From Escherichia phage fDHCT2, in the sequence record OR427838.1: a stretch of DNA of 64,000 nt; one strand, given 5' to 3'. Positions 24,504-26,025 of this stretch are shown in pieces. A program made the position numbers and the translations under genes. The notes beneath the pieces are model-generated. The model saw only the letters and a list, made by a program, of their open reading frames with translations. It was not told the origin of the DNA and ran no database searches. Positions within the stretch are counted from its first letter, which is position 1, and each line of letters begins with the position of its first letter.

Positions 24504-24968
24504 TTATTTGATTTGTTTAGCAGACCAGATACGGTCTTTGATGATTTTCTGAATATCTTCAACATACTCTAAGTCGTGAGCATGCGGATTATCTTTGAAG
24601 CTATGTGCTCGTGCCAGTTTCTGGCCTTCTGTTTTGATTACTAAAAGCTCTTTAAGAATTGCTTCATACTTAGAAATGATTCCTTTAGCGATATTTTTTT
24701 CTTGAGCGGCTTTAGGGTCCGCTTTTGACGCAGGTGCTTTACCTGTAGCTTTCTGGAACAATTCACCTGATGCAGCTAGGCTTTTAAAAACTCGGCTAAC
24801 AGTATTAGCATTAGTAAAACCTTCGGCTTTAAAATCTTTAATAAAACGGAAACGTTCTTCATCAGAGGCGTCTTTGTAAGAATATTTACCTGCTTGAATT
24901 GCTGCAATCGCGGCGGCTTTTACATCTGAACTAGATTGTTCGGTCAAAAATTCATTGTAAGTTTTCAT
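24504..24968 (-). CDS. internal-protein-like head protein with CTS (MKTYNEFLTE), 154 aa
   Basis: N-terminal CTS; gene flanked by hairpin terminators at 24477-24499 and 25009-25037. Confidence 0.65.
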   Translation of the reverse strand: MKTYNEFLTEQSSSDVKAAAIAAIQAGKYSYKDASDEERFRFIKDFKAEGFTNANTVSRVFKSLAASGELFQKATGKAPASKADPKAAQEKNIAKGIISKYEAILKELLVIKTEGQKLARAHSFKDNPHAHDLEYVEDIQKIIKDRIWSAKQIK

Positions 24969-25008
24969 TATTATTTCCTAAGTTAATTAACTTATCTATT
25001 TATTATGC

Positions 25009-25037
25009 CAAAAAGCCCCAACCTTTCGGAAGGGGCT
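25009..25037 (-). terminator. terminator hairpin (AGCCCCTTCCGAAAGGTTGGGGCT + U-run)
   Basis: Near-identical to hairpin at 24358-24386. Confidence 0.55.
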
Positions 25038-25130
25038 ATGCCTTGCGGTAACCTTGTCGGGGTTCCACCTGCTAGGCAAGTGTTTGTACGAAACGCCAGG
25101 ATTCGAACCCGGTTATTAAGCAGTTGACGC
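25036..25130 (-). ncRNA. tRNA-like element or small stable RNA (T-arm CCGGG-TTCGAAT-CCTGG present, no complete cloverleaf found)
   Basis: Canonical T-loop on minus strand in a noncoding stretch next to the tRNAs; acceptor pairing not found by hand. Confidence 0.3.
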
Positions 25131-25418
25131 TACTCAATATTTTTAAAAGGCCATATCTCGACCATATCCGAACGTTCCGTCAAAAACGCTACTCGGCTTA
25201 CGGCAAAGATATTTCCTCGAATCGATAATTAGGTGCGCCGTTTCTGCTGTGATGTAAGGGGACATTAACAGATCGTAAAGATTTGTTAATGCCAGTCCTT
25301 ACTCAGGGAACATCAGTCCGACGACTTACCGGTAGCGACCCGGTTTCTTGTTTGTTGCGCCGGTGAATGCTGGTAATCAGTCTTCATACGACGGCTTGAC
25401 TATATAATAGTCTTCATT

Positions 25419-25493
25419 TGGTATCCCGCCCTGGGATCGAACCAGGACCGCAAACTTAGAAGGATCGTATGCTATCCATTACACCAGCGGGAC
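25419..25493 (-). tRNA. tRNA-Arg (anticodon UCU), CCA encoded
   Basis: Manual fold: acceptor GTCCCGC/GCGGGAT, D-loop AATGGATA, anticodon loop CTTCTAA, T-arm CCTGG-TTCGATC-CCAGG, 3' ACCA. Confidence 0.75.
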
Positions 25494-25498
25494 ATAGT

Positions 25499-25575
25499 TG
25501 GTGACCCGGACCAGATTTGAACTGGTAACCTTTCCCTTATGAGGGGACTGCTGCTAACCATTGAGCTACAGGGCC
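25499..25575 (-). tRNA. tRNA with anticodon CAU (Met or lysidine-modified Ile), CCA encoded
   Basis: Manual fold: acceptor GGCCCTG, D-loop AATGGTTAG, anticodon loop CTCATAA, T-arm ACCAG-TTCAAAT-CTGGT, 3' ACCA; one acceptor mismatch. Confidence 0.65.
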
Positions 25576-25580
25576 TTAAT

Positions 25581-25847
25581 TTAAATTACAAATCCAGCAG
25601 GGGCATTATCATCTTTAGCCATGTGCTGAATTGTATGATAAGTCATTTCTTCAGGAGCAACCAGATAAGCCGCAACGTTAACTAGTGGAATTATTTTTGG
25701 TTTAGCGAACGTGCTATCAGAAATTGCCATAAAGGGCTCGCCGTCGGTCTCAACTTCGCCAAATTGGCACTCGTAAGAAATAGAACAACGTTTGGTGGTG
25801 GTTGTCTTGGTTTTAGGGTCATAAAAAGCTAATTTTAATACTAACAT
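25581..25847 (-). CDS. hypothetical protein (88 aa) immediately upstream of the tRNAs
   Basis: ORF ending 5 nt before the tRNA 5' end. Confidence 0.45.
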   Translation of the reverse strand: MLVLKLAFYDPKTKTTTTKRCSISYECQFGEVETDGEPFMAISDSTFAKPKIIPLVNVAAYLVAPEEMTYHTIQHMAKDDNAPAGFVI

Positions 25848-26025
25848 AATACCTCAAATAAAATTAAGTAAAGTAAGTTTGATTAATAGACCTTGTCTAT
25901 TATGAAAGGCTCTTTGAGGGAAGAACCTTTGGTAATAGAGGGTTACTTAATAATGTTAGAGTAATAATATCACATTACTCTTAAAGCATATTACTATTTT
26001 TAGGAATAGTCTGGTCAAATTTGAT

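Follow-up and report, generated by a model that had tools for sequence, protein, structure and literature searches.

The stretch at 24969-25580 of Escherichia phage fDHCT2 (OR427838.1) almost certainly forms the far end of a tRNA operon of the T4 type, one that would be processed to the stable RNAs C and D. To judge from the sequence comparisons below, its structured part is made up of orthologs of these two T4 RNAs, as is ordinary for this phage group. The feature is already known from T4-type phages and is annotated in the T4 reference; the species 1 and species 2 RNAs (C and D) of the T4 tRNA operon have been known and sequenced since the 1970s. The analysis was carried out on a window of 64,000 nucleotides (64 kb), the whole stretch of DNA considered here. 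The proposed order of the operon is tRNA-Ile(CAU), tRNA-Arg(UCU), an RNA D-like remnant, RNA D, RNA C, a trailer and an intrinsic terminator, with the following features.

25964..25988, minus strand: candidate T4 middle (MotA-type) promoter, TGCTTTA, 12 nt, TATTAT
25499..25575, minus strand: tRNA with anticodon CAU, CCA encoded; called by ARAGORN ('Met', cat) and by Rfam (50.9 bits)
25419..25493, minus strand: tRNA-Arg (UCU), CCA encoded; called by ARAGORN and by Rfam (48.8 bits)
25354..25415 (about 25349-25418), minus strand: clade-specific insert ('mini-D') of 62-70 nt with two hairpins
25232..25347, minus strand: ortholog of RNA D (T4 species 2 RNA, rnaD); 5' boundary uncertain owing to the insert
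25226..25231, minus strand: spacer of 6 nt between RNA D and RNA C
25087..25225, minus strand: ortholog of RNA C (T4 species 1 RNA, rnaC), predicted tRNA-like four-way junction
25038..25086, minus strand: conserved 3' trailer that separates RNA C from the terminator; aligns to T4, folding z-score -2.2
25010..25037, minus strand: intrinsic terminator at the end of the operon, with the hairpin AGCCCC..GAAA..GGGGCU and a U run behind it, -16 kcal/mol
24968: start codon of the next gene downstream, directly past the 24969-25580 stretch

All elements of the array lie on the minus strand, a placement that was absent from an earlier description of this DNA made without database searches (the sequence-only reading). 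tRNA genes were searched for with ARAGORN in the whole 64-kb window and with the Rfam tRNA model (RF00005). ARAGORN returned exactly two tRNAs, both on the minus strand, and Rfam agreed. These are the same two, an Arg-UCU and a CAU tRNA, that the sequence-only reading had folded by hand, and the contrast it drew with the eight tRNAs of T4 holds against the T4 annotation. No further tRNA was detected in 25036-25418 by ARAGORN or Rfam, even at E<=10; neither program matched a complete cloverleaf with an anticodon arm there, and both flanking tRNAs qualify as such. A check of the tRNAscan/ARAGORN and Infernal type, which had been proposed for this region, thus gave no extra intact tRNAs that would explain it (ARAGORN, Rfam). 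An Rfam scan of 24900-25700 at E<=10 yielded nothing real beyond the two tRNAs; weak matches to SNORD20, isrK and Plastid-ycf2 were dismissed as chance or tRNA antisense.

The tRNA-Arg is identical to T4 tRNA-Arg at all 75 of 75 nt. The CAU tRNA shows one difference to the T4 tRNA-Ile gene in the 74-nt body and, unlike the T4 gene, encodes its CCA end. By this comparison it is the ortholog of T4 tRNA-Ile, an AUA reader, and a lysidine-modified CAU anticodon, as implied by the tRNA-Ile class, is predicted from orthology to the T4 gene. The two retained tRNAs would therefore decode AUA and AGA. Both are rare codons in E. coli, and they occur at 9.7 (AUA) and 7.8 (AGA) per thousand codons in the long ORFs of the window.

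The remaining observations on 25036-25418 were borne out as well. The segment had been called non-coding, and there is indeed no credible ORF, only ORFs of 34-40 aa that overlap the stretch. It had been called relatively GC-rich, and its G+C content is 46.0% compared to 39.9% for the window. On the minus strand, 25112..25096 carries the canonical T-arm CCGGG-TTCGAAT-CCTGG, and the direct repeat GAGTAGCGT occurs twice on the same strand (25194..25186 and 25135..25127). The claim that the sequence is structured could also be reproduced, as three segments fold better than their dinucleotide shuffles, with z-scores of -3.4 (25087-25225), -3.5 (25232-25348) and -3.0 (25349-25418).

To identify these segments, 24969-25580 was compared by BLAST with 50,697 phage records, 1059 of which matched. 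The best matches were phages of the Dhakavirus type (UGJNEcP3, 98.9%), whose annotation here is limited to the two tRNAs; the region is also found in Mosigvirus and Gaprivervirus records. Under the match, the T4 records AF158101 and X03016 annotate rnaC, rnaD, species 1/2 RNA, tRNA-Arg and tRNA-Ile. A base-level alignment with T4 was collinear, with order, strand and terminator identical in kind, and the terminator is homologous to the 'pot. terminator' annotated in X03016. Identity to T4 was 136/139 for rnaC and 104/117 (89%) for rnaD. The first of two suggestions made in the sequence-only reading, small stable RNAs analogous to the T4 species 1/2 RNAs, was literally right, as the two segments align as orthologs of rnaD (species 2) and rnaC (species 1). 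The content of the operon differs. The T4 operon, with its subclusters I and II, also has tRNAs for Gln, Leu, Gly, Pro, Ser and Thr together with segB, all of which are absent here, and the Ile and Arg tRNAs, 5 nt apart in fDHCT2, are split by segB in T4. Arrangements resembling that of fDHCT2, without segB and poor in tRNAs, have been described for T2L, RB1 and RB3 (PMC2330249).

With the covariance model R1, RNA C was detected as a single copy in the window (157 bits, E about 1e-37). It is composed of the following parts.

25218..25224, minus strand: 5' strand of P1, CGAUUCG, pairing with 25089-25095 (CGUUUCG) to an acceptor-like stem
25149..25217, minus strand: P2, a long irregular hairpin in the position of a D-arm, apical loop UUGACG (25178-25183)
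25114..25139, minus strand: P3, a hairpin in the position of an anticodon arm, loop CGUCAA (25124-25129), stem of 10 bp
25096..25112, minus strand: T-arm CCGGG-UUCGAAU-CCUGG

For the comparative analysis, 26 distinct RNA C homologs were collected from GenBank and IMG/VR, and another four loci, belonging to three phage lineages, were added later. The genera represented are Tequatrovirus, Dhakavirus, Karamvirus, Kanagawavirus, Moonvirus, Gelderlandvirus and Marfavirus. The structure tested on the MAFFT alignment consisted of P1 (CGRUUCG/CGUUYCG), P2, P3, the T-arm and a pairing between the P2 and P3 loops. In this alignment 92.2% of the cells were paired, compared to 82.4% in shuffles, none of which reached 92.2% (0/500), and to 32-50% in controls with slid partners. 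Sixteen pairs were changed on both sides. All five apical stem pairs of P2 and all eight stem pairs of P3 covary, and the middle pairs of P2 covary in RNAalifold. P1 contains two invariant U.U mismatches; its pair 3/137 is A-U in 10 sequences and G-C in 16, and the other pairs are invariant. The third stem pair of the T-arm is G-C, G-U or U-A across homologs. Further support is provided by RNAalifold, which independently gave the same helices from a model-based alignment (23 of 36 pairs compensatory), and by the single-sequence MFE structure of the window RNA C, which has the same shape and agrees with the constrained fold. These results indicate, on the strength of covariation, that RNA C would fold as a tRNA-shaped four-way junction in which the acceptor-like stem and the T-arm enclose P2 and P3. 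The T-arm that had appeared to be an orphan is the T-arm of RNA C, and the two copies of GAGTAGCGT supply the 5' strands of two of its hairpins.

T4 RNA C (AF158101 70908-71046) has the same strand, the same place as last RNA before the terminator, and the same stem, T-arm and hairpins. Three substitutions separate it from fDHCT2 RNA C: two are wobble-compatible changes in helices (G-C to G-U in the T stem, U-A to U-G in P3), and one falls on a mismatched position in P2. An acceptor stem and a T-arm placed around a non-tRNA insert are presumably shared with the tRNA-like domain of tmRNA and with YrlA. However, neither of these gave a sequence or structure match to the window region in Rfam at E<=10, and T4-group RNA C has no conserved CCA end, resume codon or tag; the RNA C of Marfavirus does encode U-CCA. 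RNAs C and D themselves had no match in Rfam 15, neither in the window (E<=10) nor in three related loci from a T2/T6-type phage (L040), PG7 and MY02 (E<=0.1), and no similarity of either RNA to complete E. coli genomes was found.

We noticed that the P2 loop UUGACG (25183..25178) and the P3 loop CGUCAA (25129..25124) are complementary at six of six positions, and that this holds in all 26 sequences. In the Marfavirus-type clade (6 sequences) both loops are altered together to UUGGCG and CGCCAA, replacing an A-U by a G-C pair. Because this covariation would represent a single evolutionary event, it is suggestive rather than conclusive support for a loop-loop contact. Such a pairing could form within one molecule or between two. 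A BLAST walk outward from the KLB31, MY02 and Gelderlandvirus copies gave no further independent compensatory event in the loops, and the one metagenome scan added only two more RNA C copies of the Marfavirus type.

The RNA D ortholog was found with covariance model R2 at 141 bits, as the sole copy in the window under default filters. Compared to T4 rnaD (AF158101 71053-71171), the 35 nt at the 5' end and the 21 nt at the 3' end are unchanged, the RNA has the same architecture and the gene lies directly upstream of RNA C; the apical domain, however, is another variant than that of T4. These two end segments do not vary within the T4, Dhaka and T2/T6 groups, and the apical domain exists in these groups in at least four unrelated versions. 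RNAalifold revealed a U-A to A-U switch in an inner stem and several compensations higher up. In an alignment combined with the diverged copies described next, which is model-fitted and thus leans toward the structure, 92.5% of the cells were paired compared to 78.1% in shuffles, and 20 pairs were changed on both sides. A covariance model built from T4-, Dhaka- and T2/T6-group sequences also detected diverged full-length copies (19-27 bits) in gaps of the tRNA clusters of Karamvirus, Kanagawavirus and Marfavirus-type genomes. RNA C is not adjacent to these copies, and those of Karamvirus and Marfavirus come after other tRNAs or gaps. The motifs AAGUCGUCG, UCCCUG, CACA and GGCGC are common to the diverged copies, and the first three, which are single-stranded in RNA D, are invariant across genera.

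In T4, RNA D starts 1 nt past tRNA-Arg. fDHCT2 carries the insert of 62-70 nt at this junction and the 5' end may differ; because the insert separates RNA D from tRNA-Arg, this end could not be placed. RNA D thus does not abut tRNA-Arg in fDHCT2, and direct abutment is not a family-wide feature: at the same junction the T2/T6-type phage UFV06 has about 370 nt including an ORF, and C6 has a different tRNA-Arg directly before RNA D. The fDHCT2 insert is absent from T4, where the alignment shows a gap, and occurs in 26 phage records only, all of the Dhakavirus type and at least 98.6% identical. Its relation to RNA D was assessed in several ways. Plain local alignment was not significant (72/500 shuffles score as high), a chained alignment was marginal (14/1000 shuffles), and the RNA D covariance model with default filters gave no second copy in the window. 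When the same model was run unfiltered in a 77-nt search, the insert aligned end to end with 9.5 bits (E=0.002), matching GAA, the 5' hairpin, AAG and the CGUCG/CGGCG stem, and leaving 24 nt for the apical domain. Our tentative reading is that the insert probably arose as a duplicate of RNA D that is now truncated. It is the only local peculiarity of the fDHCT2 region.

RNA C was recognisable in about 770 records and was always located inside a tRNA cluster, in most genera directly after a tRNA and, in the T4 group, after RNA D. In Karamvirus and Gelderlandvirus a tRNA-Gly starts 6-12 nt past RNA C. Three Dhakavirus isolates, IME341, vB_EcoM_005 and C6, have kept RNA D, the trailer and the terminator and precisely lack RNA C. 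RNA C therefore appears dispensable at least in some hosts, and the two RNAs are independent, separate modules in the tRNA clusters of about nine genera. Pattern scans of IMG/VR also produced chance matches (L016, L017, L020, L022, L024, L026, L028-L032, L035 and L049) that were rejected by the RNA C model, and L052, the sole new locus of the fourth scan, was likewise rejected as RNA C.

The candidate middle promoter lies upstream of an 88-aa ORF that abuts the tRNAs; judged by the MotA-box consensus, we take it to be a consensus match only. In T4, RNase P cuts 5' of the tRNAs and of RNA C, and RNase E and exonucleases trim the 3' trailer. In fDHCT2, host RNase P would similarly cut 5' of each tRNA and also of RNA C, because the P1/T-arm minihelix looks like a tRNA, and the 3' trailer would be trimmed by RNase E and exonucleases. 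In T4 a single primary transcript covers the tRNA array and stops after species I RNA (PMC2330249), and by analogy the whole fDHCT2 array would be synthesized as one precursor. RNAs C and D, about 140 and 120 nt long, would then build up as stable species, as the T4 literature suggests. Northern blots and RNA-seq have shown T4 RNAC and RNAD to be late RNAs (PMC9697503). Their function had been stated as unknown in 2010 (PMC3014915) and in 2022 (PMC9697503), and still was in 2025, when a convergent rnaD SNP was reported in a T4-like phage adapting to a new host (PMC12685909).

The second suggestion of the sequence-only reading was that the region holds degenerate tRNAs, that is, functionless relics of the six tRNAs that T4 has and fDHCT2 lacks. 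A canonical T-arm without a cloverleaf would fit such decay, and the 3' 95 nt of RNA C are indeed sometimes called a tRNA by gene finders or annotators in other phages. However, T4 carries all eight tRNAs plus both RNAs at the same place, and its tRNAs that are missing here sit upstream of tRNA-Ile and not in this stretch. RNA C is moreover 98% identical between T4 and fDHCT2 and is recognisable throughout the records listed above, and compensatory substitutions in many phage genera preserve the helices of both RNAs. As such maintenance of helices is not expected of pseudogenes, the pseudogene reading is unsupported and we consider decayed tRNA genes extremely unlikely. Still closer to negligible is the possibility that the stretch encodes small proteins. 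ORFs of 34-40 aa are present and a CDS ('hypothetical protein') is annotated over the homologous region in many GenBank relatives, but these short ORFs are spread over both strands, and the substitutions are paired, RNA-type changes. The 40-aa minus-strand ORF has its start in RNA D, within the variable apical domain, and extends into RNA C; it is therefore impossible where the two RNAs are apart or the apical domain differs. The complementary hexamers could also be explained at the DNA level, with TTGACG/CGTCAA as an inverted repeat, for example the half-sites of a dimeric DNA-binding protein or nuclease, instead of an RNA contact. An inverted repeat in DNA would co-vary as well, and the homing endonuclease SegB is known to target the tRNA region (PMC2330249). 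Yet each hexamer falls exactly in the loop of a hairpin supported by covariation, the half-sites would be about 48 bp apart, and SegB recognises a T-loop motif and not these hexamers (PMC2330249). An origin of the hexamers in DNA recognition thus seems very unlikely.

The alternative with the most weight concerns function. RNAs C and D may have no role in trans and may accumulate as by-products, acting in cis as processing handles and 3' stabilisers of the tRNA operon: they would direct the RNase P and RNase E cuts and shield the upstream tRNAs from 3' exonucleases. The confinement of RNA C to tRNA clusters, its acceptor/T-arm minihelix that suits RNase P, the existence of natural isolates without RNA C, and the fact that no function has been found for RNAs C and D in about 50 years (PMC3014915, PMC9697503) are all consistent with this explanation. 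A processing handle, however, needs just P1 and the T-arm, and yet both 6-nt loops are invariant or co-varying and a long P2 persists although its sequence has turned over completely. RNA D lacks a tRNA-like minihelix, and its motifs AAGUCGUCG, UCCCUG and CACA are nevertheless invariant across genera; the convergent rnaD SNP in host adaptation (PMC12685909) also speaks against by-products. We therefore think a purely cis-acting role rather unlikely, though worth serious consideration. Our best guess, held with low confidence, is a role in trans for RNA C, which as a compact mimic of tRNA would engage a tRNA-binding factor of the host or the phage and would be more than a processing signal, since the invariant or co-varying loops and the single-stranded motifs suggest more than a processing handle. 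A more specific version of the trans-acting mimic, which we put forward as speculation and think distinctly unlikely, would have RNA C, a four-way junction with the acceptor/T-arm face of a tRNA, locked onto itself by pairing between the loop of its enlarged 'D-arm' and that of its 'anticodon arm'. Together with the independently mobile RNA D it would serve in trans during infection, either as a decoy or as a scaffold, for a host factor that binds tRNA. This factor might be a defence nuclease directed at tRNAs, or else an enzyme of processing or modification.

If RNA C is such a self-locked mimic, this would explain its conservation in the tRNA clusters of about nine genera, its loss in some isolates and the host-adaptation SNP in rnaD. 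Beyond the known feature, the analysis adds the RNA D-like insert, covariation models that include the loop-loop pair, and the modular spread of both RNAs. For annotation, the region should read rnaC, rnaD and tRNA-Ile, where most related GenBank records say 'hypothetical protein' or 'tRNA-Met' or leave it blank. Few RNAs that still lack a known function were sequenced as early as RNAs C and D, and the comparative models could seed Rfam families for them.

The window gene for tRNA-Ile(CAU) (25499-25575) encodes the CCA 3' end (GGGTCACCA), whereas the T4 gene (locus L001, 3633-3709) does not (GGGTCATAT). Upstream of the cluster lies an 88-aa ORF (25847..25581), whose stop codon is separated from the first tRNA by 5 nt. 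This ORF is preceded by a consensus match to a T4 middle promoter:

25964-25988, minus strand: candidate MotA-dependent promoter, TGCTTTA-12 nt-TATTAT

Judged by its sequence, this element may drive the transcript containing the tRNAs, RNA D (T4 species 2 RNA) and RNA C (T4 species 1 RNA). Between tRNA-Arg and RNA D, the window carries an insert of 62-70 nt. At the same junction, the T2/T6-type phage UFV06 (L040, 831-1202) has ~370 nt, within which an ORF of 116 aa is predicted. Since both phages have extra sequence there, the junction appears to be a hotspot for insertions.

In the tRNA clusters of Karamvirus, Kanagawavirus and Marfavirus-type genomes, diverged RNA D-like RNAs (21-27 bits) lie in gaps that carry no annotation, distant from RNA C:

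L004, 410-505: diverged RNA D-like copy
L010, 791-886: diverged RNA D-like copy
L005, 1146-1269: diverged RNA D-like copy
L047, 2279-2368: diverged RNA D-like copy

The Karamvirus and Marfavirus-type copies share an extra conserved apical motif, CCCUCA. In Marfavirus, a hairpin-rich element of ~65 nt is also located between tRNA-Met and RNA C (L042, 340-400). About 45 nt of it recur with 84-89% identity in ~135-150-kb phages outside the group (Klebsiella KpS8, Proteus Mydo, Enterobacter FENT2), and the element may be another small RNA.

In many other records rnaC and rnaD are overlaid by 'hypothetical protein' CDSs. In some phages an over-long tRNA (tRNA-Met, tRNA-Phe or tRNA-Lys) has been annotated or predicted over the 95 nt at the 3' end of RNA C, a part that the Rfam tRNA model does not match:

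L004 (PG7), 1554-1648: RNA C 3' part called tRNA
L045 (KKP_3262), 376-471: RNA C 3' part called tRNA
Phage 55 (H243): RNA C 3' part called tRNA

RNA C itself varies. CIP9-type copies (L005, L008, L015) have the T-loop UGCAUGC instead of the canonical UUCGAAU and retain both kissing loops and every other helix. In Marfavirus-type copies (L042, Klebsiella phage MY02, ~534-545; L043, L046-L048, L050, L051) the 3' end reads ...CGUUCCG-U-CCA-A, with discriminator and CCA encoded, while T4-type copies have U-ACA-A at this position. The encoded CCA raises the question of CCA maturation or charging. RNA C is precisely missing in the natural Dhakavirus isolates IME341 (L037), vB_EcoM_005 (L038) and C6 (L039), which still carry RNA D, trailer and terminator; these phages are ready-made deletion variants, usable in functional tests.
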